From IMG/VR virus record IMGVR_UViG_3300031669_005140: a stretch of 64,000 nucleotides of DNA. One strand, given 5' to 3'. Made by a program: the position numbers and the translations under genes. This document shows positions 2,349 to 61,545 of this stretch, piece after piece; within the stretch, counting starts at the first letter, position 1, and each line of letters opens with the position of its first letter. The DNA comes from a virus. The notes beneath the pieces are model-generated. The model was given only the letters and a program-made list of their open reading frames with translations. It was not told where the DNA came from and did no database searches.

Positions 2349-3035
2349 ATGAAAGCAAATTACAACAAGTCGGAAATATTAAAAAGAGCGTGGTCCTTTT
2401 ATAAGGCAATTGACAACGAGTTAACATTTGCCGACTGTTTAAGAAAAAGTTGGCATATTGCTAAAAATGGCAATAACACAGAAACGTTCAATGAGATATA
2501 TAATAAATTTAATGGTATTATATATAGGCATATCTTGAATAAGATACATAAGTATGAAATTGCTGAAGAACTAACAACCGAGGTTTTTTTGAGGTTGGAT
2601 AAGCATTTAAAAAATTACGATGTTTACAGGGCAAAAATTAGTACATGGTTGTTTACCATTGCTAATAATATTGTGATTGATTACTATAGGGCAAATCATT
2701 CTAATATGTTTGTGAGTGTAGATAATTTTGTTGATGAAGAAGGTAGGGAATTTTTTCAAATTGCTGCACCAAGTTCATACGAAATTGAAGAAACTATGCA
2801 AACGAATGAAAATGGTAAACGTATTGCTCTGGCATTGGAAAATTTAAAGCCAATGCAAAAAAGAATTGCAGAGCTGTTTTTTCTTGATGACAGGCAATAC
2901 AATGAAATTGCCGAAATTTTAAGTATACCTATTGGAACCGTTAAGGGTAACATTAATAGGATTAGAGAAAAATTACAAGCAGAATTAAAAGAGCTGCATA
3001 CAAGCCGTATGCGTAAGCCAATTACAACCGAGTAA
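2349..3035 (+). CDS. ECF-type sigma-70 factor with an extra ~45-aa N-terminal domain
   Basis: Region 2 (AEELTTEVFLRL...ISTWLFTIANNIVIDYYR) and region 4 HTH (LKPMQKRIAELFFLDDRQYNEIAEILSIPIGTVKGNINRIREKL). Confidence 0.93.
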   Translation: MKANYNKSEILKRAWSFYKAIDNELTFADCLRKSWHIAKNGNNTETFNEIYNKFNGIIYRHILNKIHKYEIAEELTTEVFLRLDKHLKNYDVYRAKISTWLFTIANNIVIDYYRANHSNMFVSVDNFVDEEGREFFQIAAPSSYEIEETMQTNENGKRIALALENLKPMQKRIAELFFLDDRQYNEIAEILSIPIGTVKGNINRIREKLQAELKELHTSRMRKPITTE

Positions 3036-3125
3036 AAAATAATTGGACAATGTTACCATAAAATGTAACATTGTCCCTATTGTTTACGTTATAATAATAT
3101 ACAATGTTCACTAAAAATTATTACC

Positions 3126-3374
3126 ATGACAAGCAAGGAACTAAATAGGGACGTATTAAGGCTAAATAAGCAGCTTAAAGTATATTTAGCAGACAATGAT
3201 AACAATTATACTCAATATATTGAGAACGTGGCAAAAAAAGAGTTTTTTAGGCTATACCTTGCCGATGAAAAGTTTGAGTATATGAGTAAAAAAAGTGTGT
3301 TAATTATGTTAAGGTTGAATCTACGATATAGGTTTATGGCGTTGCATAGCTTTGGCATACATATTCAACTTTAA
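3126..3374 (+). CDS. hypothetical protein
   Basis: ORF track; directly after promoter 3064. Confidence 0.75.
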   Translation: MTSKELNRDVLRLNKQLKVYLADNDNNYTQYIENVAKKEFFRLYLADEKFEYMSKKSVLIMLRLNLRYRFMALHSFGIHIQL

Positions 3375-3432
3375 TCAAATTTGCATTATTTTGGCATAAT
3401 AGTTATACAATGTTCACTAAAAATTACTGACT

Positions 3433-3771
3433 ATGATTATAGGAACCGATATTAGTATAGCCGTTTGTAAAGCAGAAGGCTATTTGATGCTAAAGTTTGA
3501 CGGGCGCAAAAAGTTTACAAAGAAAAGCCGTGTTAATGTTTTTGCATACTACCCACACTATTGTAATTTGCCTAATGAATTAATCTTGGATACAATAGTA
3601 ACCTTTGCAGAATTGGAAGAAATTTACAACGCTAAAAAGGCTGAACTTGATAGATTTGCAGAAACAAACGAGGCAGTAAATTTTGAAAATCCTACAATTT
3701 ACGACTTGCTGAACCTTGCAAGCGATATTAATGCTTATTGCGGATTAGAACAAAACATTAACCTTATCTAA
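3433..3771 (+). CDS. hypothetical protein
   Basis: ORF track; leader TACAATGTTCACTAAAAATTA shared with other genes. Confidence 0.75.
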   Translation: MIIGTDISIAVCKAEGYLMLKFDGRKKFTKKSRVNVFAYYPHYCNLPNELILDTIVTFAELEEIYNAKKAELDRFAETNEAVNFENPTIYDLLNLASDINAYCGLEQNINLI

Positions 3772-5912: not shown

Positions 5913-6191
5913 ATGACACAAAAGATATTAATAGTAGGTGCGGGAGATGCAAAAGACGCATTGTTACATGCCAAGTTCAAAGAAGAATATGGTAATGATA
6001 TTATTTTAGTTACCCCTGAACAAGCAAAGGAACAGGGATTGGAATTAAATGATTTTGCAAATATACCTACCATGAAGTTAACAGCACCACCAATTATTCC
6101 TATGGTGGAATTTGATGAGTATGAAACAGGCAAGGAGAAGCGTAGGAAAAGGCGTAAAGAAGAACGAAAAATAAATAAGCGTAGACAATAG
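5913..6191 (+). CDS. hypothetical protein with basic C-terminus
   Basis: ORF track. Confidence 0.7.
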   Translation: MTQKILIVGAGDAKDALLHAKFKEEYGNDIILVTPEQAKEQGLELNDFANIPTMKLTAPPIIPMVEFDEYETGKEKRRKRRKEERKINKRRQ

Positions 6192-6378
6192 TATTGTAAT
6201 AATGTCCTATTAGTTACGTATATATAACTATAATGGTTATTGGGAAAAACCACCTTATGATGAAAAGGGTAAATTAGGTTATGTGAGATAGTTCTCACAT
6301 AACTTTTTTTATTGATAATTGATTGTAACAATGTCCTATTAGTTACGTATAATAGTTATACAATGTTCACTAAAAATT

Positions 6379-6600
6379 ATGGATATGGCAAAGTATTCTA
6401 GCGCAATGAAAAAAATTGTGGATTCCAACATAGGCATTATTAGTAACATGCTAACGGCACAGTGTGAAGATTTCGCAGTAGGCTTAGGTTCTAGCGTAAT
6501 GACTGAAGAGGAGTTTGCTAACGTGGCGATTGCTAAGATAAGGCAAGTAATGCTAAAGAGGCTAATTGAGCTAAACAATTTTGGAAACCATTATGACTGA
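6379..6600 (+). CDS. hypothetical protein; 3' part tandemly duplicated
   Basis: ORF track; after promoter 6324. Confidence 0.6.
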   Translation: MDMAKYSSAMKKIVDSNIGIISNMLTAQCEDFAVGLGSSVMTEEEFANVAIAKIRQVMLKRLIELNNFGNHYD

Positions 6601-6685
6601 AGAGGAGTTTGCTAACGTGGCGATTGCTAAGATAAGGCAAGTAATGCTAAAGAGGCTAATTGAGCTAAACAGTTTTGGAAACTAT
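6499..6685 (+). repeat. 94-bp tandem duplication
   Basis: ATGACTGAAGAGGAGTTTGCTAACG... starts at 6499 and again at 6593; copy 2 has a 1-nt deletion and a few substitutions. Confidence 0.9.
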
Positions 6686-6880
6686 TACATTGAATAGATA
6701 AAGCGAAAATAAATGGACAATGTTACTGTAAAATGTAACATTGTCCCATTAGTTTTCGTTATAATAATATACAATGTTCACTAAAATAGGTTTAATTAAA
6801 ATATTATAAAAACAAAATTTGACAATTAATGTAACAAAACCAAAATAATTACGTATAAGTAAATAGAAATCACAACAGCA

Positions 6881-7093
6881 ATGTTTTATATTTGTTATTA
6901 TAAACTTTTAAAATTAAACGATATGAAACCACAGATGTTATTAAAGATGAGAATTTCCGTTGATTCATCACAGAAACAAAGATATACGGAAGAAGAAATA
7001 AATTTGGAATTTACTAAAGACAACATAGAAATTGAACGGAAATTGGTTATTAGAAAAACTGATGGTGCTGTTATGGGTGAAATCTTAGTTTAA
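6881..7093 (+). CDS. cassette-borne hypothetical protein (probable start 6923)
   Basis: ORF track. Confidence 0.6.
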   Translation: MFYICYYKLLKLNDMKPQMLLKMRISVDSSQKQRYTEEEINLEFTKDNIEIERKLVIRKTDGAVMGEILV

Positions 7094-7126
7094 TTTTATT
7101 GCTTATAACGGTTTGGCTAAAGTGCG

Positions 7127-7459
7127 TTGCCATTAAAATGCACTCAACTATCAAATTATTATGACATGAGTAAAAAGAAAAAGACTTCCGAACAAGCCGA
7201 AACTGGCAATGCAACTTTAGGTGTTGTTACCCACAGTGGTTTTGATAATCCTAAAGAAAAAGCAAAATCAATGGTGAATGACATTCAATTAAAACTTGGA
7301 TTATCGAAGGATGATGCAGTGAATGTTGCCATATACGCAATTCAGACAATGATAACCTACAATCCAATATCCACAACCACTGATGATAGAGAAAGGGAAT
7401 ATCACAAGTATTGGAAAGATGTTGAAATAGAGTTGAACGTTGCTTACCATTGTGGGTAA
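7127..7459 (+). CDS. cassette-borne hypothetical protein; start lies in the attC-like loop
   Basis: ORF track; stop TAA is the TAA of the next TAAC box. Confidence 0.7.
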   Translation: MPLKCTQLSNYYDMSKKKKTSEQAETGNATLGVVTHSGFDNPKEKAKSMVNDIQLKLGLSKDDAVNVAIYAIQTMITYNPISTTTDDREREYHKYWKDVEIELNVAYHCG

Positions 7460-7477
7460 CGGTATTGATAAACGCAG

Positions 7478-7771
7478 TTGAACACTAAATTTAATTATAT
7501 GACAGAACAACAAATAACAGATGAAGCGATAAAATACAGAACTATACAATGGAGTCCAAATAAAGACGATGATATATACTTAGACTGTGAAAACTGTGAA
7601 GAAGATTTTATTGCTGGTGCTAAATGGATGCAAGAACAATTGCGTTTATCTAATGTTAGCCAGCGAAGCGAACTGTTGTTTGCTTTTATCAAAGACTGGA
7701 AAGAGGAATTTAAAGATGAAAACTGGGATTACCTTGATTTTATGGCAGAACGTTTCTTAGGCAAACAATAG
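7478..7771 (+). CDS. cassette-borne hypothetical protein
   Basis: ORF track; spans junction GTTAGC at 7655. Confidence 0.7.
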   Translation: MNTKFNYMTEQQITDEAIKYRTIQWSPNKDDDIYLDCENCEEDFIAGAKWMQEQLRLSNVSQRSELLFAFIKDWKEEFKDENWDYLDFMAERFLGKQ

Positions 7772-7821
7772 TTGCTAACGGTCGCAGATATATTCAGTTG
7801 TTTACTTAAATTGAAACACAA

Positions 7822-8028
7822 ATGATACAAAAAGAAGATTACTTAAAAGCAAAGCAGATTGTTCAAAAATATGAAAAACAATTGAATATATCTGTTGTTA
7901 GCCACCGTTCTTGGGAATGTAATTCATGTGGCTTTAAAGATTATACAGATGCTATTAGCGAAGATGAAATTCATAGCGGATTACTTGCCTGTTCAAACTG
8001 TGGTGGTGATGAATTTCATCTTGTTTGA
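7822..8028 (+). CDS. cassette-borne small Zn-ribbon-like protein
   Basis: CxxC...CxxC (CNSC, CSNC); spans junction 7897. Confidence 0.7.
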   Translation: MIQKEDYLKAKQIVQKYEKQLNISVVSHRSWECNSCGFKDYTDAISEDEIHSGLLACSNCGGDEFHLV

Positions 8029-8147
8029 ATGGTGGCTAACGGTTGGGTATATGTGTTGTACGCCTGACCACAAACTTTAAAATAAAGTACAACACTTCAT
8101 TGGCGTATAACATATATACCTTGTTATATGCAGTTAAATAATACAGT

Positions 8148-8417
8148 ATGAAAGAATTAGTTAAAAAAGTAGATTTATTTGAAAGTATGATGTTGAAATT
8201 TGCACAAGGTAAAATGAATGAAGCAAATGATGCTTTTGCAGAACGACATGGTTACGATTTAAGAGAAACAAAAAATAATGACCATCTTAAATTTTGCCGA
8301 TGGGAAATAGAGGACGAAACTCTAATTCTTTCATACTGTGAAGTAACGCCTCACGATTGTCCTTATGGAATAGACCTTGAATATAAGTTAAGTGATTTGT
8401 CGATTAATTGCATATAA
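8148..8417 (+). CDS. cassette-borne hypothetical protein
   Basis: ORF track; stop lies in the terminal TAAC box. Confidence 0.7.
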   Translation: MKELVKKVDLFESMMLKFAQGKMNEANDAFAERHGYDLRETKNNDHLKFCRWEIEDETLILSYCEVTPHDCPYGIDLEYKLSDLSINCI

Positions 8418-8551
8418 CTCGTTTATATATACACCTTTACTTAGGAACAATGATCTGAGTATCAGTAGATTATGCCATAAAATATTTAATTGTTTTATGG
8501 TAACAATGTTCTATTAGTTTCGTATAATAGGTATAACCAACACAAACTATC

Positions 8552-8827
8552 ATGACAAAAAAGCGGGTTAAAACAGAATCAAACCAGCAAACTTATGTGG
8601 GTTGGAATGGTCATAGGATTAGAATCAATGCATTCTTTTTTGACTATAAGCAAGGGTGTGGCTATAAGTATATGCTTGCTGCAAATGTAAACGATATGAG
8701 CAAAGCAGATTTGTTTAACTTGTTTTACGATTGGGTTAGTGGTAAGACAGAGAAATTGCCTTGGTTTGTTAAAAGTAGAATTGCTGAAACCGATGAAAAG
8801 CGGTTTAAAATTTCACTTAGCATGTAA
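8552..8827 (+). CDS. hypothetical protein
   Basis: ORF track; after promoter 8499. Confidence 0.75.
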   Translation: MTKKRVKTESNQQTYVGWNGHRIRINAFFFDYKQGCGYKYMLAANVNDMSKADLFNLFYDWVSGKTEKLPWFVKSRIAETDEKRFKISLSM

Positions 8828-9092
8828 CAATTAGGTCTAGTTTTCGTATTATAAGTATGTTTAATTAATAGCAATCACGATGTATGAAGTTCATGTAAAT
8901 GGTTTTATCTGGTATGCAGATGTGCGCAACAGAGTTCTTTACGAAGATAGAGAAAAAACCAGAGGCACTCCCTTTTCTTATTTAACAAAAAATGATTTGG
9001 AACAGGTTGAAAATGAACTGAGATTTCCAAGAAGTAAAAAAGAGGATGAAGTCTAAAATAGTAACCCTAGGTCGTAACTAATCTAGGGTTAT

Positions 9093-9166
9093 TTCGTATA
9101 ATGAAATAACTTTTGTCTTATATCGCTGTCGTTGTAGTTAACCAGACTGCCGACAGCGAATTTTTT
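9093..9166 (+). repeat. 74-bp block (promoter -10, short leader, terminator hairpin), copy 1
   Basis: Identical to 10239-10312; hairpin TCGCTGTCG...CGACAGCGA followed by a T-run. Confidence 0.85.
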
Positions 9167-9226
9167 ATTTAGTTGTAACATTTTCCACGTATTTTCGTAT
9201 AATAGGTATAACCAATATTTACTACA

Positions 9227-9427
9227 ATGGGAAATGAATTTAGTGGTGCTGAACTGCAACTCCGTCGTGAAATAATGGAAGCATATACTTTTTTGAGAGA
9301 GAAAAATATGACAATTCCAAGTGAAACGCTTGACTTCATTAAAGATGCTGCACTTGAAAAACTTGAGGTTGCAATTGAAAATCGAAAAAGATGCGAGGAA
9401 TATTTAGAACTTGAAGATAATAATTAA
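9227..9427 (+). CDS. hypothetical protein
   Basis: ORF track; after promoter 9174. Confidence 0.7.
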   Translation: MGNEFSGAELQLRREIMEAYTFLREKNMTIPSETLDFIKDAALEKLEVAIENRKRCEEYLELEDNN

Positions 9428-9689
9428 TACCTTAACTAAATGGAAACCGATTTATTTGACTTAATTAAAAAAAGTTCGGACAAAATTGACACCTACTTGG
9501 GTGATGTATCAACTACGGATTTTGTTGCTGATGTAAAGAGATTAGTAACACAAAACATATCTAAAACTGCCATTGAGGATACGATTAAAAGTTTACAGTC
9601 ACTAATCTCTTAATTTAAAATAACCCTAGGTTGTAACAAATCTAGGGTTATTTCGTATCATAAATATAACCAATAAACACACAACCGTT

Positions 9690-9926
9690 ATGGATGCATA
9701 CTATTATCAAATTGTCGAATTCAATGAACTTTCTCAAAGAGAAGGTGAAATTGTTGATGAAGGTATTATTAGAAGTTCTGAAGATACCATTTATCCTGGG
9801 CAAAATGCCAACAACAGCGATTTGCCTTATGAGTGTGAAGCGCACCATTTTAAGGCTGTCGGATATAGATTAAACCTTTATTCGTTTAGTATTTCGAGAG
9901 AAGAAATTTTAGACAGAGCACTTTAA
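9690..9926 (+). CDS. hypothetical protein
   Basis: ORF track; after promoter 9632. Confidence 0.7.
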   Translation: MDAYYYQIVEFNELSQREGEIVDEGIIRSSEDTIYPGQNANNSDLPYECEAHHFKAVGYRLNLYSFSISREEILDRAL

Positions 9927-10238
9927 ATTGTAACATTTTCCACGTATTTTCGTATAATAAGTATTACAAGAAAAACTTAGAACTTAAACGATTTACAATG
10001 AAAAAAATGGCTAGTATTAGAGGTTCCCCCAAGGAGTAAAACATTTAATTTATAATTTAACTTAGCCGTATATAAAAACTATGAACGCCATGCACAGAAT
10101 TAGAGATCGAACCAACTAAGCAAACTACAAATAAGAACGAAATTTAATATAGACAATTAATAATAAGACTAATCGCCAACCCCAAGATAATTATATAGTG
10201 GGTTGGCGATTAAAGTTTTGTAACAAATTATAATTTTT

Positions 10239-10312
10239 TTCGTATAATGAAATAACTTTTGTCTTATATCGCTGTCGTTGTAGTTAACCAGACTGCCGAC
10301 AGCGAATTTTTT
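10239..10312 (+). repeat. 74-bp block, copy 2
   Basis: Identical to 9093-9166. Confidence 0.85.
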
Positions 10313-10430
10313 TATTTAGTGTAACAAATTCTAATTTTTTTCGTATATTTGTATATCTATTTGTATTATTATTCTAATCGTTGTTGTGGCGTTATGAACC
10401 ACAGCAACGATTTCTTAACACAATTTTATT

Positions 10431-10640
10431 ATGGATATCGAAAGCGAACCCGAATTATCAGAATCTTTAATTGGAAAAAAGGTTAAAATGCTGGATAAGG
10501 AAGGCATTATAGTAATGACTGAAGGACTTAATGTTTATATTCATAAAGATTTTGAACTAGCAAGTAAATCACCTTGGATAACGCATAAATATGTTTATAC
10601 AATATGTGTTAGAATTGAGGATGTGGTTTTTATTGACTAG
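10431..10640 (+). CDS. hypothetical protein
   Basis: ORF track. Confidence 0.7.
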   Translation: MDIESEPELSESLIGKKVKMLDKEGIIVMTEGLNVYIHKDFELASKSPWITHKYVYTICVRIEDVVFID

Positions 10641-10686
10641 TGTAACATTATCCAATACTTTTCGTATAATATAAAAAACATAAGCC

Positions 10687-11076
10687 ATGAGAATTGAAAA
10701 TTCTAAGATAACGCTACGAATTGATTCAGATCAAACAGTAATTGAAATTTTTGATTCTGATGCGTCAACCACAATTGCAAAAGCAATATTAACACCACAG
10801 CAACTATCACAGGTATTGTCTAGGCTTGCCTATGTTGATTGTGAATGTATGGTGGGTGACTTTTCCAGAATTGGTAAGAAAATGGAAAATCAAACGTTTG
10901 AATTTGAAATAACTGGTTCAAAATCGAGCATTGATTTGAATAATGATTGCATTGATGCTTTGTTTCGTGAAGGCATGTCTGACTGGATACCAGATAACTA
11001 CTATCAATCACAGAATTCGTTTTTTAATAAAGACGACAAGCAGTATGCAAGGGTAACAATACGTAGATGGGTTTAA
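10687..11076 (+). CDS. hypothetical protein
   Basis: ORF track; after promoter 10641. Confidence 0.8.
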   Translation: MRIENSKITLRIDSDQTVIEIFDSDASTTIAKAILTPQQLSQVLSRLAYVDCECMVGDFSRIGKKMENQTFEFEITGSKSSIDLNNDCIDALFREGMSDWIPDNYYQSQNSFFNKDDKQYARVTIRRWV

Positions 11077-11091
11077 TTAAAAACTACAGTT

Positions 11092-11280
11092 ATGGCAACG
11101 TTAAGACAATTTATTGCAGAAATTGGCAATACTAAAGAGGAATTGCTTGATAAGGAAATTTTTGTTCGTGCAGAAAACGGATTATTGGTTGAACCAAAAT
11201 TACAATTCCTAGTTAAAGAATTAAGCAATTTTGACTTAGATGCAGATAACGTTGAAAAAATTATTATTGGTTATTTTTAG
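11092..11280 (+). CDS. hypothetical protein
   Basis: ORF track. Confidence 0.65.
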   Translation: MATLRQFIAEIGNTKEELLDKEIFVRAENGLLVEPKLQFLVKELSNFDLDADNVEKIIIGYF

Positions 11281-11319
11281 CGTAACCCTTTTAATTAAGA
11301 TACGTATAATAAGCATAAC

Positions 11320-11495
11320 CAAGTTGGATGCAAAAGCCAAATTTGACGTGTGGATTCTTGTTTTAACCTGCGGACTAATTGAGCAATAGACAAACGAGGA
11401 ATGTAACGAATTAAGAAATGAACGTGGTCTTGGTCTGTTTCCATTACCTCAATATCAAAATCAGAACCATCAGCAATAGATTGAAAAATTTTCAA
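11320..11495 (-). pseudogene. tnpA: internal fragment of an IS200/IS605-family Y1 transposase
   Basis: FDIEVMETDQDHVHFLIRYIPRLSIAQLVRRLKQESTRQIW carries the HUH motif and downstream helix of IS200 TnpA; both ends are missing. Confidence 0.85.
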
Positions 11496-11506
11496 ATTAC
11501 AACAAA

Positions 11507-11722
11507 ATGAAAAACGAAGCAGAAGAGATTGATAACCAACAAGGCAATGGAGTTTTACCGTGTGTTAGCGTGAGTGATGTTCATTCATTTTTAGAATGGT
11601 TAAATAATCAACAACATGATTATATGGGTGGTGAATTTCTATATGATGTGAAAGGATATTACAAACGCTTAAAACAAGGTGAAATGTTTGATTATTGGTT
11701 AGAACGTGTTCATTCACGCTAA
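11507..11722 (+). CDS. cassette-borne hypothetical protein
   Basis: ORF track; stop lies in the TAAC box. Confidence 0.7.
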   Translation: MKNEAEEIDNQQGNGVLPCVSVSDVHSFLEWLNNQQHDYMGGEFLYDVKGYYKRLKQGEMFDYWLERVHSR

Positions 11723-12046
11723 CGGCTGCGGGTTTGTTGTGAAATTTTACGAGTAAATAACTAATAATTTACGATAATGGAAAACTTAAAATATGAAATA
11801 AAAGAGGTGCTTGAGAGCTCAATGATTAAAAGCGAGGTTGCTACAAATTGTGTGCTGCTAACCAAAAGCGTTAATGAAATTGCAGAAGAAATAGTAAAAT
11901 TATGCAATAAACCCGCTGTTAGCAAACGTTTAATCCTCGAAAACTTACTTGAAAGGATGCAAGCAGTTTATCCAGAATATTACTTAGAAATAATACAAGA
12001 TGAGTTAGATGGATTAAATGGATGCTAACTCGTTTATATGTGCACC
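11543..12046 (+). mobile_element. integron-like cassette array 2 (2 cassettes; first site lacks its left arm)
   Basis: Junctions GTTAGCGTGAGTG 11564 / CATTCACGCTAAC 11711-11723 and GTTAGCA 11918 / TGCTAAC 12023-12029; terminal motif 12026-12046. Confidence 0.8.
11777..12028 (+). CDS. cassette-borne hypothetical protein
   Basis: ORF track; start in the hairpin loop, stop in the terminal TAAC box. Confidence 0.7.
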   Translation: MENLKYEIKEVLESSMIKSEVATNCVLLTKSVNEIAEEIVKLCNKPAVSKRLILENLLERMQAVYPEYYLEIIQDELDGLNGC

Positions 12047-12161
12047 TTTACCAAATGTTAACTATCACGTTATCAATTAATAGGCATATTGAAATGATAA
12101 TAGTGTAACAATTTTAAATAAAACTCGTATCATAAGTATAACCAACACAAACACACACACA

Positions 12162-12452
12162 ATGGCAAATTTCTGGTCAATTAAGGAAGAAGAGATTTTA
12201 GCAAGTCTCGTTAGCAGTTCAGCAGATGCGTACGAAGCATTTAGAATTGCATCAAAACAGTTTAACAGAACCTATGTTGCATGTCAAGCACACTGGTCGT
12301 TCATGCTGAAGCGAACAAAAAGAAAGGGTGTAATGATTGTTTGCTATCGTAAGATAATTGCAGACGGCCTCAGCAAAAAAATGATAACGGCCTACAAGTC
12401 AAAAAAACCCACTGGACTTGGAAGTAAAATGGTTCAACTTGCTTTCGGTTAA
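12162..12452 (+). CDS. hypothetical protein (possible Myb/HTH-like N-terminus)
   Basis: WSIKEEEILASLV...IASKQFNRTYVACQAHW resembles a Myb-like helix pattern; after promoter 12104. Confidence 0.6.
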   Translation: MANFWSIKEEEILASLVSSSADAYEAFRIASKQFNRTYVACQAHWSFMLKRTKRKGVMIVCYRKIIADGLSKKMITAYKSKKPTGLGSKMVQLAFG

Positions 12453-12554
12453 AACCTAACAATTAAAATGAAAATCCTGTAAGAAATTACAGGATTTTTT
12501 TGTAACAATACTATTCTAATTTCGTATAATAAGTATAACCAATAAGTATTCAAA

Positions 12555-12815
12555 ATGAAAATACTTGAATTAGATGGACTTATGTACTCTAGGGATAGTT
12601 TTGAAAACTATAGATTTAGAGCCAAGGTAATGATTGAAACATCAAATGACACATTTTTCTTGGACGTGTATACAACAGATACGAATAGAGAAAATGTTGA
12701 AAAGGTGCTGCTGGATAGAAAATCGATTATTGTTAAATCTTTAGCAATTATTTACTGGTCGTCAAAGGAGCAAGATGATGCTACAACAGAATTTATCAAT
12801 GATACTCTAAAATAG
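12555..12815 (+). CDS. hypothetical protein
   Basis: ORF track; after terminator 12471-12500 and promoter 12501. Confidence 0.75.
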   Translation: MKILELDGLMYSRDSFENYRFRAKVMIETSNDTFFLDVYTTDTNRENVEKVLLDRKSIIVKSLAIIYWSSKEQDDATTEFINDTLK

Positions 12816-12818
12816 GAA

Positions 12819-13007
12819 TTGACGATGAAAAACAAATACGATTTACTTGCTGAGATTTCAATTGCAATTTTTCTTTTTGTAATATTTGCTTGTGTAATAA
12901 CAATTACCGTAGCACTAACTCACCAAGATCAATCCGCTTTAGTAATTTTAGGCAGTATTTCATTGGGCGCATATATTGCATTCAGAATAATGAGATATGT
13001 TGAATGA
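12819..13007 (+). CDS. small membrane protein (2 TM)
   Basis: Two hydrophobic stretches; terminator 13041-13070 follows. Confidence 0.7.
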   Translation: MTMKNKYDLLAEISIAIFLFVIFACVITITVALTHQDQSALVILGSISLGAYIAFRIMRYVE

Positions 13008-13166
13008 AAAATAATATTTGGTTGTTGTTTGGTTTGCTTTTACCCCCTGCTGGTTACAGGGGGTTTTTTATTTTAAATTAGTGTAACAAATTTGAAAATT
13101 AAACGTATAATATAATTGAAATACTATAGCAATGTTTTATATTTGTTGTTATAAACAGTTTTTATT

Positions 13167-13379
13167 ATGATGATAATTTCGCAGGGAGCAACTGCTCAAT
13201 ATAATGAAAGTGGTGAAGAAGTATCTTACTGGTGCTATAAAAGAGGTGCGTGGATTACTCACAAAAGATATGAGCAGTTTTATCCATTTACCACTGAACT
13301 GCCACAACCGTATAAAAACAAACAACACCATCAAGAATCAAATCCAAAATGGCAAAATGAAAGGAAGATGTTTCTTTAA
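13167..13379 (+). CDS. cassette-borne hypothetical protein
   Basis: ORF track. Confidence 0.55.
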   Translation: MMIISQGATAQYNESGEEVSYWCYKRGAWITHKRYEQFYPFTTELPQPYKNKQHHQESNPKWQNERKMFL

Positions 13380-13504
13380 TATGTTTGCTAACGTTTTGTG
13401 TATGAGCAGTGGCACTTGTACACACTTTCAAATTAGCTACACCGCTTGTGTGCCATTGCTTATACACGGTGTTAGGCACAGGTTTTTAATTAATAATTCA
13501 AAAT

Positions 13505-13951
13505 ATGAGAAAAATACACATAAACAACGATGACAATTACGCTACACCACCCGAATTTTATAAGGCATTGGATAAGCGTTTTAAATTTGATTTTGACCCA
13601 TGCCCATATTGCGAGGGCGAAGTTATTGATGGGTTAAGCATTGAATGGGGAAGCTCAAACTTTATAAACCCGCCTTACAGCCAAAAACTAAAGGAAGAGT
13701 TTGTAAAGAAAGGAATTGAAGAAATGCAAAAAGGGAAAGTTTGTGTTTTTTTGATACCTGTAAGCACTTCGACAAAACTATTTCATAAATACATTAAGCC
13801 AAATGCAACCGAAATAGAATTTATTGAAGGCAGAATAAAGTTTGGGAAACTGGATGAAAAAGGCAACTTTTATTTACCATTAAACGCAAAAGGTAAAACC
13901 CAAAGCGGAACAAAAGATAGTATGGTAGTAGTTTTCGATGGGCGATCTTAA
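13505..13951 (+). CDS. phage Dam-like DNA N6-adenine methyltransferase (cassette-borne)
   Basis: YATPPEF...FDFDPC...FINPPYS...VFLIPVST...IEFIEGRIKF pattern of small phage N6-MTases. Confidence 0.85.
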   Translation: MRKIHINNDDNYATPPEFYKALDKRFKFDFDPCPYCEGEVIDGLSIEWGSSNFINPPYSQKLKEEFVKKGIEEMQKGKVCVFLIPVSTSTKLFHKYIKPNATEIEFIEGRIKFGKLDEKGNFYLPLNAKGKTQSGTKDSMVVVFDGRS

Positions 13952-14068
13952 ACTTGTGCCTAACGGTCGAGGCTATGAACTGAAAGCCGACACCACAAAA
14001 GATAATTAATAGTAATAACCTTAATAAAGGCTTTTTGTTTATAGCCTTTGTTAGCAACTTTTAAAATT

Positions 14069-14215
14069 ATGGAACGATTAGCAGATAAGACAGTAGAAGA
14101 ATTGAAACAAATTAGAGAAGATTATGTTAAAAAGTACATTGGTGACTTTGATAAACCAATAGATTATGCACGAACTTTATTACACTTGGATAGGTTAATA
14201 ATGGCGAAAGGGTAA
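14069..14215 (+). CDS. cassette-borne 48-aa protein
   Basis: Read manually (MERLADKTVEELKQIRE...); fills the cassette between GTTAGCAAC and GTTGCTAAC. Confidence 0.6.
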   Translation: MERLADKTVEELKQIREDYVKKYIGDFDKPIDYARTLLHLDRLIMAKG

Positions 14216-14290
14216 TAATTTTTATTGTTGCTAACGGTTGCAGGTATATTTTGATTTTTTACGGATTTGAAACACTAAAACTAAATAACA

Positions 14291-14524
14291 ATGATTAGAA
14301 CACCAGAAGAACAACATTTGCACGAACTTATAGAAAGTTACGTTGCTCCATTGCGAAGTGAAATAAAAGAACTACGCAAAGAATTAGCAGAACAGCAAGT
14401 AAAAAATTTGAATATACCTGCTGTTATGGGTGAGTTAACTTGCGATAGTTGCGGTTGCCATCCAAATGTGATATACACAACAGGTAAGGGTAGATTTTGC
14501 GAAAGGTGTATACCAGCAAGTTAA
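14291..14524 (+). CDS. cassette-borne coiled-coil plus Zn-finger protein
   Basis: CDSC...CERC after the junction at 14423. Confidence 0.7.
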   Translation: MIRTPEEQHLHELIESYVAPLRSEIKELRKELAEQQVKNLNIPAVMGELTCDSCGCHPNVIYTTGKGRFCERCIPAS

Positions 14525-14795
14525 TTACCCATAACTCGTTTATATGTGCACCTATTTACTAGGTAAGCATCTGATAATCATTAAATAAATTAGTAATGAC
14601 TATAATCAAAATGTAACAATTCTGGTTATATTTCGTATAATAGGTATAGGCTGGGTAAAACTAGGGTGCAGTAATCCATACCTGCCTTATATTCTGATTA
14701 TTTAGAATCTATTTAGATAATCGTTTTATTTAAAATATTGTAACCTTTTTAATTAAGATACGTATAATAAGTATTATTAACTAACAACAACTATT

Positions 14796-15674
14796 ATGAA
14801 AGCAAAAGTAGGAACAACACTTTGCAGCCTGAATGACCTTACATTTCCTGTTGAATTGCGTGATAACGAGCGCAAAACCAATAGAGAATATTCAAAGGTA
14901 GTTACAGGTGTTATTGATGGTGAAGAAATAGATTTGAACTATTGCTCACCTGTTTATGAACTTGTGCCAAATGCAGATATTTTTCCAAAGGTTGAGCAAA
15001 TTTTCAACCAAAACGGTATTGCATTTAGTTCACAGTACTCGCATACAAACAACGCTCGTTTTTACGGTAATTTTATCGTTGAAGACCCACGTTTTGCCTA
15101 CAAAATGGATGGCACTTCAGATGTGATTAAGTTCATTTGGAACTTTCAGCATTCCTACAATGGCCTGACTAAGTATAAGGGTATTGCTGGTTTTTACCGC
15201 TTGGTTTGCACCAATGGCTTAACCGTACCAGTTCAGGAAATGAAGCAGTACAATCTTGTAATTGAGGGCAAGCATACCAGCACGATAATTCACTCGCTTA
15301 AGGAATTTGGTGCAATACTCGAAAGAGTTGCAAACAATCTTGACGTGGTAAAAACCTCAATTACTGATAAGTATGAACTGCTTGGTGGTCGCATGGTTAC
15401 TAAGGTTGAGGACAGAATTATTGAGGTATTGGGTGCTAGTAAAATAATCGTTGTTGAGAACTCAAAATTCAATACCGTTAACGATATTCTTAACAGGATT
15501 AACAAAGAAGCAAAAGACAGTTCTTTGGGGTATAACGGTAGGGTAAACGACTGGTTAATTTACAACGGTATTAACCAGTACATTCACGATGATCAGCGCA
15601 ATATTGCAGCACCTGAAAAGCGCAGGGAAACCGATTCAAAGGTGCTTGAGTATATGCTAGAGTTTTCTGCATAA
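14796..15674 (+). CDS. DUF932-family protein
   Basis: HSYNG...GFYRLVCTNGL motif typical of DUF932 phage/plasmid proteins. Confidence 0.75.
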   Translation: MKAKVGTTLCSLNDLTFPVELRDNERKTNREYSKVVTGVIDGEEIDLNYCSPVYELVPNADIFPKVEQIFNQNGIAFSSQYSHTNNARFYGNFIVEDPRFAYKMDGTSDVIKFIWNFQHSYNGLTKYKGIAGFYRLVCTNGLTVPVQEMKQYNLVIEGKHTSTIIHSLKEFGAILERVANNLDVVKTSITDKYELLGGRMVTKVEDRIIEVLGASKIIVVENSKFNTVNDILNRINKEAKDSSLGYNGRVNDWLIYNGINQYIHDDQRNIAAPEKRRETDSKVLEYMLEFSA

Positions 15675-26178: not shown

Positions 26179-28452
26179 ATGGAAATTAATCTAAAGCAAT
26201 TAGGCACACAAGCCGTTGAAGCAAGTACTGGCACAAAGAAAATGCGTTTGTCAGAAAACGCTACCAGCATGGTATTTCAACTTTTTACGAAAAACATATA
26301 CTCCAATCCAATTGGAACAGTTGTTCGTGAAATTACATCAAACTGTTTTGATAGCCATGTTGAAGCAGGAATTAACGCACCTGTGTTAATTAAAAAAATG
26401 GTTGACAACCAAACCAATACAACATACATATCATTTATTGATTATGGTGTTGGTATGTCACCCGATAGGGTTGAAAACATCTATGGTGTTTATTTTGAAA
26501 GCACGAAAAGAACCGACAACACCCAAATCGGTGGTTTTGGCATTGGTGGCAAAACGCCACTTGCATACAAACGCAGCACAGGTCGTGGTGAAGGTGAATA
26601 TGATAATAGTTTTTATCTCATCACAAATTTTGATGGTATGAAATACTTTTATTGCATCTTTGAAGGCACTGAGAGTCCTGTTATTAGCCTACTACATAGC
26701 GAACCAACAAAAGAGCATAATGGTAGTGAAGTTCGCATACCTGTGCTTGAAAAAGACGTGTTTACCTTTGCTAAGGAAATGGTAAGACAACTATACTATT
26801 TCGAAAATATTATCTTTGATGGTTTTGAAGATTCCTCCTTTACTGAAACTCTTTCAAACGAGTATCAAATTCTTAGAGGCAAAACCTTTCTATATCGAGG
26901 CAGTGAGTATGATAATCATATTCATGTCTGCTTAGGTAGGGTTGCATATCCAATCGACTACAATGTACTTGGTTTAAATTCAAGCGATTATCTACTACCA
27001 ATTGCATTAAAACTTGAAGTGGGTGAAATCGGTGTAACTGCAAGTAGGGAAACTTTGGATTATAGCGAAGGCACGATTAAGACTTTGAAGAAAAAGTTGG
27101 AAGAAACGAAGGATGAAATTAAGAAATTGCTTAACAAGCAGTATGAGAATATTGTTACGCTGAAGGATTATTTTAGTGTAAAGAATGAGTTTGGTGTGCT
27201 GAAATTTCCAAATGGAATGTCCATTAAAGCAGTAAACTTAGTTTCTATTAAGGATGTTGACTTTTCAAATTTCAGGTATTCGTTTATGAAAATGCCAAAT
27301 GATAAGCAACTATTCAATTTCTTTTTCGATGCAAAAATGTATGGTAATAAGCGTTACAGCCGTCGTTATAGCAGAGACTACAATTTTACTGGTGGGTATG
27401 ATGAATTGATTGCTAAGAAAAACCTACTGTATGTTGAGAATGATTTTGTGCGCAAAGTAGTAAAGCAAGGGTATTTAAAAGAATTGCACGATACCTACCA
27501 TATTATTACCAGACGTAACTTGACTTCAAGTTTAATGAGGCAGGAAATTTCAGAACTGTTCAATGTCCATATGACTAACATGGTTGATGACAATGGTAAA
27601 CCTGTTGCCTACCTGCAAACATTAATTGATATGCAGGAAGAATATTTCAGCATTGTACGTGAAAATGCTGAAGATTATGATTTGATTGAAATCCCAGCAG
27701 AATTTTTAGTTAGAAGAAAGCGTAATGTATTGTCAGAGGACGTTCGTAACACAACAATACCAATTAGATTTTTTGGCAATTATGGCAAACACAGAGTTAA
27801 GTTAGATTCGCTATTCAAGTTCAAAGAGCCAATTTTTTATGGCACAACTGATGACGAAAACAAGTTACAAAATGCATACAGCATATACAACATGCTGTTT
27901 GATAAAGAAACAGTTGTTAGCAGGTATGCTCAACATGATAATACTTTTAGCAGAACAGGTAAGAAGGGCATAATGTTCATTATGGTGGCAAAGTCATATG
28001 AAAAATACATGAAATTCTGCTCGAATGTATATCATATTGATGGGTTCTATCATAGAATGCTCTATCGTAAGGAAAATAGTGTTCAAGAATATTTTAAGAC
28101 TTACAGCATTATTGACAAATATGATGAACTAAAAAATTTGTTCAGAACCAATGTACTAGAAAAAATTAATCCCAAATATGGTGATATATTAAAGAAGGTC
28201 AAGAAACATATCCACACATTACCTAATAGATCTTCAAGTCTTTGTAGTTATGAAGAAGAGTTAAAGAAATATTTTGACCTATCCAATTTAGAATTAAGTC
28301 CAGAACAAGTAATGTGTGATAAAATGATTGACGAACTGCTTGATTTACAGACAAGAAACGAAAAAATTTTGAAATATATTGATCTACCATATTACATGGA
28401 TGGAATAGATGATGACCTAATTGAGATACTAAAGAAAGTTATGGTTTTTTAA
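26179..28452 (+). CDS. rIIA: rIIA-like protein (GHKL/Hsp90-type ATPase N-domain)
   Basis: YSNPIGTVVREITSNCFDSH, DYGVGM, YFESTK, IGGFGIGGK; adjacent to an rIIB-like gene. Confidence 0.85.
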   Translation: MEINLKQLGTQAVEASTGTKKMRLSENATSMVFQLFTKNIYSNPIGTVVREITSNCFDSHVEAGINAPVLIKKMVDNQTNTTYISFIDYGVGMSPDRVENIYGVYFESTKRTDNTQIGGFGIGGKTPLAYKRSTGRGEGEYDNSFYLITNFDGMKYFYCIFEGTESPVISLLHSEPTKEHNGSEVRIPVLEKDVFTFAKEMVRQLYYFENIIFDGFEDSSFTETLSNEYQILRGKTFLYRGSEYDNHIHVCLGRVAYPIDYNVLGLNSSDYLLPIALKLEVGEIGVTASRETLDYSEGTIKTLKKKLEETKDEIKKLLNKQYENIVTLKDYFSVKNEFGVLKFPNGMSIKAVNLVSIKDVDFSNFRYSFMKMPNDKQLFNFFFDAKMYGNKRYSRRYSRDYNFTGGYDELIAKKNLLYVENDFVRKVVKQGYLKELHDTYHIITRRNLTSSLMRQEISELFNVHMTNMVDDNGKPVAYLQTLIDMQEEYFSIVRENAEDYDLIEIPAEFLVRRKRNVLSEDVRNTTIPIRFFGNYGKHRVKLDSLFKFKEPIFYGTTDDENKLQNAYSIYNMLFDKETVVSRYAQHDNTFSRTGKKGIMFIMVAKSYEKYMKFCSNVYHIDGFYHRMLYRKENSVQEYFKTYSIIDKYDELKNLFRTNVLEKINPKYGDILKKVKKHIHTLPNRSSSLCSYEEELKKYFDLSNLELSPEQVMCDKMIDELLDLQTRNEKILKYIDLPYYMDGIDDDLIEILKKVMVF

Positions 28453-42937: not shown

Positions 42938-45304
42938 ATGGCAACCTATAATCCTAAATCCCATCCAACTAAGTTACTTATTGACCATAAGAAAGGCATT
43001 CTAAACCTTTCTGATGTTACGGATTTGCTATTACTGGCAGTTTCATTTCACGATGTTGGAAAGATGAATGATAACTTTCAAAAGTATATTGTTGGTGATT
43101 CATATTCTGGATATAAAAACCATGCATATATTTCGGCGTACTATCTCATAAATGGGTTTGTTAACAATAAAGAAGCAATTAAGAAAAGATTTTCTTTTAT
43201 TACTGAATATAATTTTGAAATGATACTGCTATTGTTAGGAAATGTTGTTATCGGCCATCACGGTTATCTTCGAAATATTGATGAAATATTTAGTAATGAT
43301 AAGGAATGGGATGACATGATTAACTATCTTAAGTCAATAAATATGACTGAGCATGTCAATACTTTCTTTAAGGATAATATTGATCTTTTGGGGTGTGAGT
43401 TAACATTTATTGATGATATTGAAAAATGTGATTACTATCGCACATTCGGTAGAATTTTGGATAAACCTAGTTGGAATGTATCTGCGTTAGATTATTACTT
43501 TGATACTATTATGACGTTTGCTGAACTAGTAACTGGTGATAGGAGAGATGCATCTGGAAATGTTGCATCATATAGGGAAAAAACAAAAAAAAGATATGCC
43601 TATTCATTAGAAAATAATTTGGAGTGGATGTTTAATAGCTTAACAAGTAAAAGTGACTTAAATACTGTTCGTAATAAGATTAGAAAAATGGCAGTTAGTG
43701 AGTTATCAACACAACTTAACAGCAGTAAAGACAAGAGAGTATTTACCTTAACAGCACCAACTGGTAGTGGAAAAACATTAATGATGTTACAACTTGCTAC
43801 TGAAATTTTAAAAAGGAAGGGTTATGATCACGATATAATTTATTCGCTTCCATATCTTTCAATTATTGATCAAACTACGAAGATATTGAATAAAGATTTA
43901 AGAATAGAAACTCTAAACTATACCTCTGCTTCAGATACAAGTATGAAACTTAAAAGTATGATGGAAAAGGAAAGCGGGTCGAAGGATTTGATTGAGTATG
44001 CCTTTTCTGAAAATTGCTTTGATCATTCGTTTATTGTTACAACGTTTAATCAGCTATTTGAAACATTACTTAGTAACAGCACAAGTAAGTTAATAAGGCT
44101 GAAAAATTTCAAAAAGCGCATATTCTTAATTGATGAGTTTCAAGCAGCAAGTCCAATGCAGTATTATACGCTTATGAACCTTCTGAATGAGTTTTGTGTG
44201 AGATATGATAGCTATGCCATTATTAGTACTGCAACAATGCCAAATTTTGGTATAGATTGGAATGCAATGAAAAACAAAAACATTAAAAATCTGTTTAAAA
44301 AGCAGTTTTACAATACAGAATTACTACCAGATAAGGTATTTGAGAATAGCGTTTTTAATCGATATAGAATTAACTTTAGTGGTGAAGTAGATCAAAATTC
44401 TTTGTATAAAATGGTAAATGACGCAGATAAAAGTGCGTTATTGATTGTAAATACAATACGAACTTCACAAATAATGTATTCAAAGTTTGCGGAAGTCAAC
44501 AATGCGAAAGTCAACAATTTTGATAAGTTATATTTATTAAATGCTCATATTAGTCCAGCAGATAGACTAAAATTGATTAGTAATATTTTTGACGATTTAA
44601 AAAATAATATAAAAATTCTTGTAATAAGTACACAGGTAATTGAAGCAGGAGTTGATATTAGTTTTCCTATAGTATATCGGGATGCTGCTCCACCTTCAAG
44701 CGTTGTTCAAGCATGTGGTCGTGGTAATCGCAATGGCGAATTTGGCATAATTGATATTTACCTATTTTTATTTAAAGATGGTGGGAATGCAAATTATGAT
44801 TGCAACATGGTTTATCATGGCACAATGACAAATAACTTTAGAAATGACATAAAAAATAAGATATCATCCCTAACTGAAATTGAATTTCATAAAAGATGCC
44901 AAAAATATTTTGCAGGATTATCCATAAATGCTGAGCATGGCAAGGTGAGTGAAAACCAAAATATTGTTGATGACATTCTTGACGGTAAATTTTATGATAT
45001 TGGTAATTATAGATTCATTCAAGGTGATCCAGATACACACACAATATATGTGGGTAAAGATGATGATACTTGGAACGCATATATTAACTCATTGCAACAA
45101 ATAAAATCAGCAAATAATTATCAGGAACGTGATATTGCAAATATCGAATTTAAGCGTATAAGAGGAGTGGTTCTTCAAAATTGCATAAACATACGCACCA
45201 AGGTTTTTGAATCGATTAGTGTTGAAGAAAATGATGTTTTTGGTGTGTATAGGTTGCTTGATGTTGATAAATATGATTCAAAAATTGGACTGATTGAATT
45301 TTAA
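42938..45304 (+). CDS. cas3: Cas3 (HD nuclease plus SF2 helicase)
   Basis: LIDH, FHDVGK, HHG; TAPTGSGKT, DEFQ, STAT, TQVIEAGVDISF, QACGRGNRNG; own promoter 42887. Confidence 0.95.
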   Translation: MATYNPKSHPTKLLIDHKKGILNLSDVTDLLLLAVSFHDVGKMNDNFQKYIVGDSYSGYKNHAYISAYYLINGFVNNKEAIKKRFSFITEYNFEMILLLLGNVVIGHHGYLRNIDEIFSNDKEWDDMINYLKSINMTEHVNTFFKDNIDLLGCELTFIDDIEKCDYYRTFGRILDKPSWNVSALDYYFDTIMTFAELVTGDRRDASGNVASYREKTKKRYAYSLENNLEWMFNSLTSKSDLNTVRNKIRKMAVSELSTQLNSSKDKRVFTLTAPTGSGKTLMMLQLATEILKRKGYDHDIIYSLPYLSIIDQTTKILNKDLRIETLNYTSASDTSMKLKSMMEKESGSKDLIEYAFSENCFDHSFIVTTFNQLFETLLSNSTSKLIRLKNFKKRIFLIDEFQAASPMQYYTLMNLLNEFCVRYDSYAIISTATMPNFGIDWNAMKNKNIKNLFKKQFYNTELLPDKVFENSVFNRYRINFSGEVDQNSLYKMVNDADKSALLIVNTIRTSQIMYSKFAEVNNAKVNNFDKLYLLNAHISPADRLKLISNIFDDLKNNIKILVISTQVIEAGVDISFPIVYRDAAPPSSVVQACGRGNRNGEFGIIDIYLFLFKDGGNANYDCNMVYHGTMTNNFRNDIKNKISSLTEIEFHKRCQKYFAGLSINAEHGKVSENQNIVDDILDGKFYDIGNYRFIQGDPDTHTIYVGKDDDTWNAYINSLQQIKSANNYQERDIANIEFKRIRGVVLQNCINIRTKVFESISVEENDVFGVYRLLDVDKYDSKIGLIEF

Positions 45305-47917: not shown

Positions 47918-48095
47918 GCATTATTTTCATTTATTTGTAGTAATGAAATTATTGCTTATATTTGTGGATATATTTTAGTAATTATGTGCTTTAATGATGA
48001 TGTAATTTTAAGAAATTGTTTTCCTATTCTTAATTTAAATGAAAATGAGGTTAAAATTATATATGATTTTCATGAAAGACTAAATCTCATAGAAT

Positions 48096-61228: not shown

Positions 61229-61245
61229 AGTCGTAGTTATTAATG

Positions 61246-61545
61246 TTAAAGTTCGTAAAAGTTTAATACATCTCGTGCGTTGAGGGAAAGTTTACCGAGT
61301 TCCCTATCTCTTTTAATACGTTTCCACCCCTTAAAGGCTGAGCTATCGCTGGAGTTAACGTGCTGGCCTATCTTGTTTAGCGTGTCCATCTCTAGCTCGT
61401 AGGCCACGTAGTAGAACATCTGCTTGGCATCCCGCACCCTATTCATGGTGAAGTTCTTAAACATGGTCGCCAGCGTTACATCCATCTTGACGGATATTTC
61501 GAAAAGCATCTCGTCTAGGTCGTGCTTGGTCTTGGTTCTTTTCAT
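61246..61545 (-). CDS. DnaA C-terminal-like HTH protein
   Basis: RVRDAKQMFYYVAYEL...LNKIGQHVN resembles DnaA domain IV. Confidence 0.6.
   Translation of the reverse strand: MKRTKTKHDLDEMLFEISVKMDVTLATMFKNFTMNRVRDAKQMFYYVAYELEMDTLNKIGQHVNSSDSSAFKGWKRIKRDRELGKLSLNARDVLNFYEL

Follow-up and report, generated by a model that had tools for sequence, protein, structure and literature searches.

Integrons are the textbook device for the capture and reshuffling of genes in bacteria. When a classical integron is followed along the bottom strand of its attC sites, sites alternate with cassette bodies, beginning with a site, until attI is reached; intI comes next, in sense, and cleavage takes place in the 5' ..AA|C box. 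To our knowledge, integrons are generally regarded as reliant on a specialised integrase domain and as uncommon in Bacteroidota and in phages. Xer/dif and the elements exploiting it, in turn, involve a short Xer-type recombinase, the folded single-strand attP of CTX phage and the exchange of one strand. Here we analyze a 64,000-nt stretch of viral DNA (IMG/VR record IMGVR_UViG_3300031669_005140; hereafter, the whole of this stretch is the window), the early region of a large phage, in which an initial annotation made from the sequence letters had recognized arrays of small genes interspersed with TAAC-hairpin-GTTA sites and had read them as integron-type cassettes with attC-like folded sites. 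Our results support this reading. The arrays quite probably represent rows of mobile gene cassettes belonging to an integron-type, single-strand, site-specific recombination system, with the anatomy described and the cut and enzyme proposed below.

Parts of such an arrangement have been described in phages. Qi et al. 2023 (PMC9892861) reported 17 clusters of attC sites lacking integrases (CALINs) in phages, including one in the Polaribacter phage P12002L whose two sites came from generic attC tools and were treated as ordinary attC. The first of these, P12002L_attC1, called attC by HattCI in that study, is given in its oligonucleotide list as TAAC-GGCTA-stem-loop-stem-TT-GTTA and is a member of the site family analyzed here, whereas attC2 corresponds to the terminal flank of the array read in reverse. 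In the P12002L sequence, we found an array of the window's site family around methyltransferase genes, including units with GTTG/CAAC cores; as in the window, no integrase is adjacent and methyltransferases are carried as cargo. The arrangement can thus not be called wholly undescribed, although no description had been known initially. Gene orientation, the rules governing cassette ends, the terminal site, the strand bias, a Xer-like enzyme and the spread among Bacteroidota phages were not found in PMC9892861, and in the literature beyond it we found no description of the site family as such; the family has so far been described only in fragments. The nearest phage analogue is provided by the promoter early stem-loop (PeSL) modules of T4-type phages (PMC2839356, PMC4122927), conserved promoter-stem-loop direct repeats that are thought to recombine by homology. 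Like the window arrays, these place small early genes of large virulent phages between repeated motifs, are swapped as modules and hold promoters within the repeat; unlike them, the phage arrays have heterogeneous sites, break at a fixed tetranucleotide and carry units with complementary ends.

Sites were detected by pairing each TAAC with each GTTA located 50-1000 nt downstream and aligning the arms outward from the core, an anchored alignment used instead of a detector based on free folding energy, which was too unspecific. Eight complete TAAC-hairpin-GTTA sites, grouped in three plus-strand arrays, were recovered at the positions claimed initially with scores of 33-45, and the remaining plus strand gave scores of at most 32 save for two false positives, namely a repeated promoter/terminator pair (9062-9650, score 45) and an alternative GTTA end of the site at 8037 (8037-8136, score 33). 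Composition-shuffled windows yielded 0-2 pairs at a score of at least 33. The arrays of hairpin sites are confirmed as real, far beyond chance. A search of Rfam at E up to 1 over positions 6000-15000 returned nothing relevant. The hairpin arms (20-27 nt) vary in sequence with pairing kept, and the cores are TAAC/GTTA, replaced by CAAC/GTTG in some units. Of the build proposed initially, the hairpins themselves stood, and the two to three extra unpaired bases of the left arm were redefined: the prevailing inner loop next to the core, seen in half of the sites, has 5 nt in its left and 2 nt in its right strand, and bulged bases are present in some sites only. All three plus-strand arrays close with a terminal site TAAC|TCGTTTATAT (8415, 12026 and 14532).

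No close relative of the phage was found when the region was compared with 50,697 phage records, which gave three short matches only. The terminal motif and the motif at the array starts, however, are both present in three IMG/VR contigs, of 50, 129 and 203 kb (hereafter G001-G003), which have only these two motifs in common with the window and whose arrays exhibit the same construction around wholly different genes. The consensus pattern of the short site class was detected in at least 120 stretches in IMG/VR and in 66 stretches in species-representative genomes, the latter mostly from Flavobacteriaceae, Bacteroidales, Chitinophagales, Cyclobacteriaceae and other Bacteroidota, with some short and probably mis-binned contigs. 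Across 117 IMG/VR loci among the matches listed, sites fall into two length classes of about 85-90 nt and about 120-129 nt. Vibrio repeats measure about 123-126 nt, which matches the second of the two phage classes, clustering at about 87 and about 124 nt.

The sites are strongly asymmetric with respect to strand. For every window site, the arm-pairing score was about 10 points better on the plus than on the minus strand, and folding with DNA parameters likewise favored the plus strand in 8/8 sites. Using a score that treats G.T and A.C equally, the arms comprised 967 Watson-Crick pairs, 12 A.C pairs and 104 G.T pairs, of which 94 have their G in the left arm and 10 in the right. This excess of G.T over A.C, combined with the 5x2 inner loop, indicates that the plus (coding) strand forms a good hairpin and its complement does not, which reverses the initial assignment of the folding strand to the bottom strand.

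Next, the two ends of each cassette were compared, counting perfect pairs beyond GTTA/TAAC, in the window together with G001-G003 (set 1, about 55 sites) and in the 117 IMG/VR loci (set 2, 427 oriented sites). The initial observation that cassette ends are complementary to each other, better than to the box in their own hairpin, was borne out in both. In set 1, same-cassette ends gave a mean of 4.5 and a median of 6 (n=53), 74% of them with four or more perfect pairs, compared with a mean of 0.6 for the own hairpin (n=56) and of 0.8 for random pairs (n=3671), of which 4% reached four or more. In set 2, 291 adjacent pairs gave a mean of 4.4, against 0.88 for the own hairpin and 0.79 for random pairs. 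The pairing follows the pattern GTTA-N6-G.T-N4 and extends over about 15 bp, longer than the boxes first listed, with six Watson-Crick pairs, a G.T wobble and about four further pairs; the G.T at stem position 7 after GTTA was present in 30/40 cassettes of set 1 and 158/202 of set 2. Among matches to the pattern only, in which pairing of the N4 boxes was no part of the pattern, these boxes were fully paired in 114/132 cases versus 18% with shuffled partners. Consistent with these counts, in DNA-parameter folding the joining of the same-cassette end to its site gained 3-12 kcal/mol in 7/8 window sites, and ends taken from other cassettes brought no gain.

The boundaries of the mobile unit were established by comparing the flanks (200 nt downstream) of 1528 pairs of hairpins that are at least 80% alike. 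Whereas 69 pairs, from 37 loci, shared the downstream flank only, none shared the upstream flank only; 23 had both flanks in common and 1436 had neither. In the 69 downstream-only pairs, identity immediately 3' of the opening TAAC was 0.90, versus 0.37 immediately 5' of it, with perfect matching extending only 0-3 nt to the left of TAAC in 69/69, and at the closing TAAC it was 0.86 before and 0.38 after. The most direct case is a 297-nt unit of G001 that occurs with 100% identity in two arrays of opposite orientation (3306-3602 and 14032-13736); the identity begins at TAAC and ends after the next TAAC, and one copy abuts the terminal site. Given the 69:0 flank sharing and the identity breaks at TAAC, the mobile unit consists of a site and the gene that follows it, with its boundary at the TAAC, 5' of the hairpin. 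The crossover had initially been placed at G|TT; the same 69 versus 0 sharing moves it to the TAAC side. Each site belongs to the gene after it, so genes are not divided between cassettes, and a crossover at G|TT inside genes that would swap protein N- and C-termini was rejected, hairpins never traveling with the upstream gene alone. In 6/6 genes that read through the right arm (open reading frames (ORFs) 7166, 7478, 7822, 11507, 11777 and 14291), valine is encoded in frame by the GTT of the GTTA core; with the crossover at TAAC, this more probably reflects coding constraint or shared ancestry than the swapping of protein halves. Four genes stop on the TAA of a TAAC box (7457, 8415, 11720 and 12026), exactly as first noted.

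Units have thus moved among relatives, in line with the initial description of the cassettes as shufflable, and the units of this genome may be mobile as well. In contigs of other phages, assembled from four public runs, sequences diverge from the window at 7457, 8413, 13389, 13475, 13961, 14057 and 14530, points that coincide with the edges of cassettes or sites. In G002 and G003, the motif found at the window's array starts is a complete site within an array, with a phage promoter in its loop, and hence a cassette bearing its own promoter. The window copies of this promoter-bearing site end just upstream of the promoter, a truncation that looks like the product of ordinary recombination between promoter repeats.

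This resemblance to promoter-to-promoter recombination raises the possibility that the modules are shuffled throughout in the manner of PeSL modules, with similar hairpins or promoters of co-infecting phages recombining by homology and no dedicated enzyme taking part. The hairpins do form families, as the 1528 similar pairs attest, the phage promoter is repeated dozens of times, and the T4-type phages offer a precedent. Under homology, however, breakpoints should spread through the hairpin, yet 69/69 informative ones fall within 0-3 nt of TAAC; nor would homologous recombination give any reason for the mutual complementarity of a unit's two ends or for strand-specific wobbles, and we judge it quite unlikely to be the process that built the arrays.

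A dedicated enzyme was indicated by the phages that carry related arrays. When 50 site-bearing virus records were searched with PF00589, 17 matched, 13 of the matches being ORFs of about 264-277 aa (E 1e-33 to 1e-40), and 12/13 of these recombinase genes are preceded on their own strand by sites no more than about 1 kb away. A hairpin-less site separates the last cassette from the recombinase gene; that of the viral locus L149, TAAC|TAGATTATATATG, exemplifies the layout seen in the window: TAAC, five bases, TATAT. The array-linked recombinase best matches XerA (184-207 bits, below the cut-off of 220), followed by XerD and XerC, matches the integron-integrase model in two pieces, and exhibits all RHRY catalytic motifs in its sequence; upon alignment with VchIntIA, about 48 residues are absent at the IntI-specific insert. 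The window sites could also be tied to these enzymes through a covariance model trained solely on 12 recombinase-adjacent short sites of other phages, which recovered the window's three short sites on the plus strand (E 1.4e-13 for 8037-8126, versus 0.011 on the minus strand; 9.1e-11 for 13389-13474; 7.8e-07 for 13961-14053) and nothing else credible. In agreement with the initial annotation, a tyrosine recombinase was found in the window neither when 20 large ORFs were compared with Pfam nor when 12 array-linked recombinases served as tblastn queries. The window's phage-specific promoter is essentially missing from the other site-bearing loci, and therefore no recombinase-bearing phage is a close relative.

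The nature of the array-adjoining gene also bears on another reading, in which the units would be single-strand transposons of the IS200/IS605 or REP/RAYT type, inserted 3' of TAAC by an HUH (Y1) endonuclease, with the unit's own TAAC end recreating the target. Insertion after a tetranucleotide, units that end with the same tetranucleotide, strand bias and the proximity of a hairpin to the cut would all be expected of such elements. The adjoining gene, on the contrary, encodes a tyrosine recombinase of the Xer/IntI clade, a Y1 transposase (PF01797) was not found at E up to 0.1 in G001-G003, and each unit has a single hairpin instead of one at either end, which leaves a transposon origin extremely improbable.

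We therefore return to the cassette system, in which a unit has the following anatomy: C-(5-nt spacer)-left arm-loop-right arm-(2 nt)-GTTA-N6-G-N4 ... gene ... N4-T-N6'-TAA. Every gene is thus headed by its own site, whose arms fold on the coding (plus) strand, and in an excised circle the final bases of the cassette, ending in TAA, would complete a stem of about 15 bp with the GTTA box, which would account for the complementarity of each cassette's two ends. A tyrosine recombinase of the Xer/IntI clade would then cut TAA|C and exchange one strand, the conserved G.T wobbles and the 5x2 inner loop leaving the plus strand as its only good substrate. The conserved terminal site, with which each array ends on its 3' side, would presumably be the point of entry for new cassettes. 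Promoters are found in the loops of sites or at the opposite end of the array. Since no recombinase was found in the window, the enzyme for this phage would be supplied from elsewhere in its genome, from its host or from a co-infecting phage; otherwise, the arrays would be fossils rather than elements active at present.

Several observations weigh against this proposal. No such recombinase was found in the 381 kb of the three nearest relatives (G001-G003) either, and a PF00589 match is absent from 4/8 near-complete site-bearing phage genomes, so that a trans-acting enzyme is an assumption. The array-linked enzyme lacks the IntI-specific insert by which classical integrases read folded attC, and P12002L_attC1 was the only one of six sites that IntI1 did not recombine (PMC9892861). 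The public-run contigs revealed neither circles nor empty sites nor excision junctions, the sides of their joints being shorter than 40 nt and untrustworthy. Finally, the folding strand is the transcribed (mRNA) strand, and G.U pairs are normal in RNA. Together with the start codons and leaders contained in the loops, and with the promoters that drive all arrays, this last point would suit hairpins that are chiefly RNA structures of early transcripts, serving as processing sites, stabilizers or translational controls that pair the ends of a message, with exchange as a by-product. Such a role leaves unexplained the identical units in unrelated contexts that break exactly at TAAC, the tyrosine recombinase gene after 12/13 arrays, the hairpin-less terminal site closing each array and the orientation of the wobbles (G left and T right, 94 versus 10), and we assign it a low probability.

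Set against the classical integron, the proposed cassette system agrees in its logic and departs in its layout. Shared features comprise sites with YAAC/GTTR cores that form imperfect hairpins and are read in folded single-stranded form, complementary cassette ends as the mark of a circular intermediate, and a recombinase within the Xer/IntI clade. The order along the folding strand is also common to both, site and body being followed by a simple terminal site and by a recombinase gene in sense; the integron order introduced above and its cut side are those observed or proposed for the plus strand of the phage arrays. The sites further display what defines attC: inverted R''/R' cores (RYYYAAC / GTTRRRY) and inner L boxes within a hairpin that pairs imperfectly and whose structure is conserved while its sequence varies. 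By contrast, the phage cassette genes are in sense on the folding strand and the site precedes its gene, often overlapping the 5' end, and the arrays have no Pc promoter at the attI side, so that they do not take the form of promoterless ORFs each followed by attC. Strand choice appears to depend on the 5x2 inner loop and on G.T wobbles, in place of the known extrahelical bases, and the linked recombinase is only about 268 aa long, about 48 residues fewer than VchIntIA at the IntI-specific insert. An adjacent integrase with the IntI-specific domain is likewise missing, no tyrosine recombinase having been found in the window or in G001-G003; with three to four clusters of sites and no integrase nearby, the window layout would suit a CALIN, defined as two or more attC sites close together without an integron integrase. 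The conserved hairpin-less terminal site of each window array is a candidate counterpart of attI: it resembles the sites next to recombinase genes in other phages, the duplicated unit of G001 lies against such a site, and insertion may take place there. With the Xer-exploiting elements, the phage system would have in common a short Xer-type enzyme acting on a folded single-strand site; these elements, however, integrate as a whole into one chromosomal dif site and form no arrays of single-gene units with unit-specific end pairing.

There is, in our estimation, about an even chance that these arrays belong to a separate integron class common in Bacteroidota and their phages, characterized by a minimal XerA-like recombinase without the IntI insert, by strand choice through G.T wobbles and by sense cassettes, some with their own promoters. 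Orphan phage arrays would then be served in trans by recombinases of the host or of co-infecting phages, and phages and hosts would draw on one cassette pool, including anti-restriction methyltransferases. Integron logic is encountered here in a mirrored layout with a much simpler enzyme, and it recurs in more than 100 viral contigs and dozens of Bacteroidota assemblies, where standard integron finders would miss the arrays or log them merely as stray attC clusters. If active, the system would explain the turnover of small early and anti-defense genes in large virulent phages, open a direct route of gene traffic between phages and hosts, and constitute a minimal natural system in which a Xer-type enzyme reads folded single-stranded DNA.

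The arrays were then inspected unit by unit; all features listed here lie on the plus strand unless stated otherwise, and paired scores refer to the plus and the minus strand, in that order. The placement of the arrays held, except that the first unit of each (6877, 11543 and 13128) retains a right half-site alone. Array 1 starts with a truncated promoter-bearing site (6820-6900), devoid of left arm and TAAC, in which the promoter TGTAACA..CGTATAAG is followed by the right arm and a core mutated to ATTA; it shares 84-90% identity with the loop and right arm of complete sites in G002 (190281-190394) and G003 (126196-126309). The first gene (6881-7093, 70 aa), which starts within the right arm, has no family match. 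Site 1.1 (7106-7229, 124 nt; scores 33 and 21) harbors in its loop the start codon of the next gene (7166-7459, 97 aa), which stops on the TAA of the TAAC at 7457 and whose cassette ends, GTTACCCACA and TGTGGGTAAC, pair. Site 1.2 (7457-7658, 202 nt; scores 34 and 30) has a long coding loop and is followed by a gene of up to 97 aa (7478-7771) with poorly matching end boxes (2 perfect pairs). Site 1.3 (7776-7900, 125 nt; scores 42 and 34) heads a Cys-rich gene product of 68 aa (7822-8028) with a weak zinc-finger match below the Pfam cut-off, and the short-class site 1.4 (8037-8126, 90 nt; scores 44 and 32) heads a gene of 89 aa (8148-8417) that stops on the TAA of the terminal TAAC. The terminal, attI-like site (8415-8492) consists of TAAC|TCGTTTATATATACACC and a conserved flank, is laid out as in the terminal sites that adjoin recombinase genes and shows 90% identity over 80 nt to the array end of locus L001.

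Array 2 starts with a right half-site only (11543-11567), which closes with GTTAGC at 11564. Its first gene (11507-11722, 71 aa) stops on the TAA of the TAAC at 11720, where site 2.1 begins (11720-11921, 202 nt; scores 45 and 33); the cassette gene that follows (11777-12028, 83 aa) stops on the TAA of the terminal TAAC, and the terminal site (12026-12055) reads TAAC|TCGTTTATATGTGCACC. Array 3 again opens with a truncated promoter-bearing site (13076-13151), comprising the promoter in the former loop and then the right arm with GTTA, with 90% identity to positions 3981-4061 of L002 and 9676-9757 of L003. A first gene of 70 aa (13167-13379) precedes the short-class site 3.1 (13389-13474, 86 nt; scores 44 and 31), which heads the DNA methyltransferase cassette recognized initially; its product, a Dam-type N6-adenine enzyme of 148 aa (13505-13951), matches PF05869 at E 5.6e-18, and the cassette ends GTTAGGCACA and TGTGCCTAAC pair. 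The short-class site 3.2 (13961-14053, 93 nt; scores 39 and 28) is followed by a gene of 48 aa (14069-14215), and site 3.3 (14232-14426, 195 nt; scores 44 and 36) by a gene of 77 aa (14291-14524) with a weak zinc-ribbon match below the Pfam cut-off. The terminal site (14532-14602) is composed of TAAC|TCGTTTATATGTGCACC and the conserved flank, 90% identical over 82 nt to the array end of L002. Ten cassette proteins matched nothing in PHROG, and in Pfam nothing above the gathering cut-off.

The count of three plus-strand arrays was correct, but a fourth array on the minus strand had been missed. Its end part (63768-64000) includes the opener GTTGTAGGGC (63899) and the closer CAAC|TCGTTTATAT (63781-63768) and continues beyond the window end; in its last unit the core co-varies to GTTG/CAAC, and the terminal motif is the same as in the other arrays. 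A minus-strand terminal motif at 48361 proved spurious, and regular expressions for loose half-sites were uninformative. At 47935-47975, the window also retains a relic of a site right arm, 89% identical to part of the site at G001 2318-2432, with a decayed core that reads GTGGATA where GTTGTTA is expected.

Some sites and recombinases of the relatives have features of their own. In L003 (8680-9440; G003 125229-125998), a site loop has grown to 770 nt by a free-standing gene while the arms still pair, and this gene resembles a GIY-YIG homing endonuclease and has a promoter-like leader of its own. A hairpin type starting with TAACGGTTGGGTGTATGAGAAGG recurs both beside recombinase genes and within the arrays of relatives (G001 2591-3309, G002 191402-192152, G003 61086-61782, and L150, L151, L154, L155, L157 and L161), and it often heads a gene with a weak match to the ART-PolyVal ADP-ribosyltransferase (PF18760, E 8e-6, below the cut-off, as measured on the related product of L003 10294-10842). 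In a 464-kb contig (G037; L161/L163, 12145-16202), which represents a near-complete giant phage genome, a Xer-like recombinase gene beside a site appears split into pieces of 178 aa and 43 aa, perhaps through decay of an integrase. Small serine recombinases of about 218-224 aa (PF00239, E ~1e-21) occur in G001 (7882-8298 and 27710-28123) and G003 (43699-44112); they were rejected as the array enzyme, as they lie at least 4 kb from any array and are absent from G002.

The surrounding window is AT-rich (about 31% G+C) and carries nearly all of its genes on the plus strand, dozens of them preceded by the repeated promoter TGTAACA-N-CGTATAAT. The encoded products include an ECF-type sigma factor, a DUF932 protein, a GP88-family protein and an FtsH-like protease, as well as Cas6, Cas3, a Dcm methylase and a Dam methylase. 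Between the small genes that separate the arrays, promoter/terminator modules recur (9057-9100, 9622-9660 and 10219-10310), consisting of AACCCTAGG..CTAGGGTT palindromes together with a 70-nt repeat at 9089 and 10235; these modules make up a second type of repeated junction, closer to the PeSL modules.

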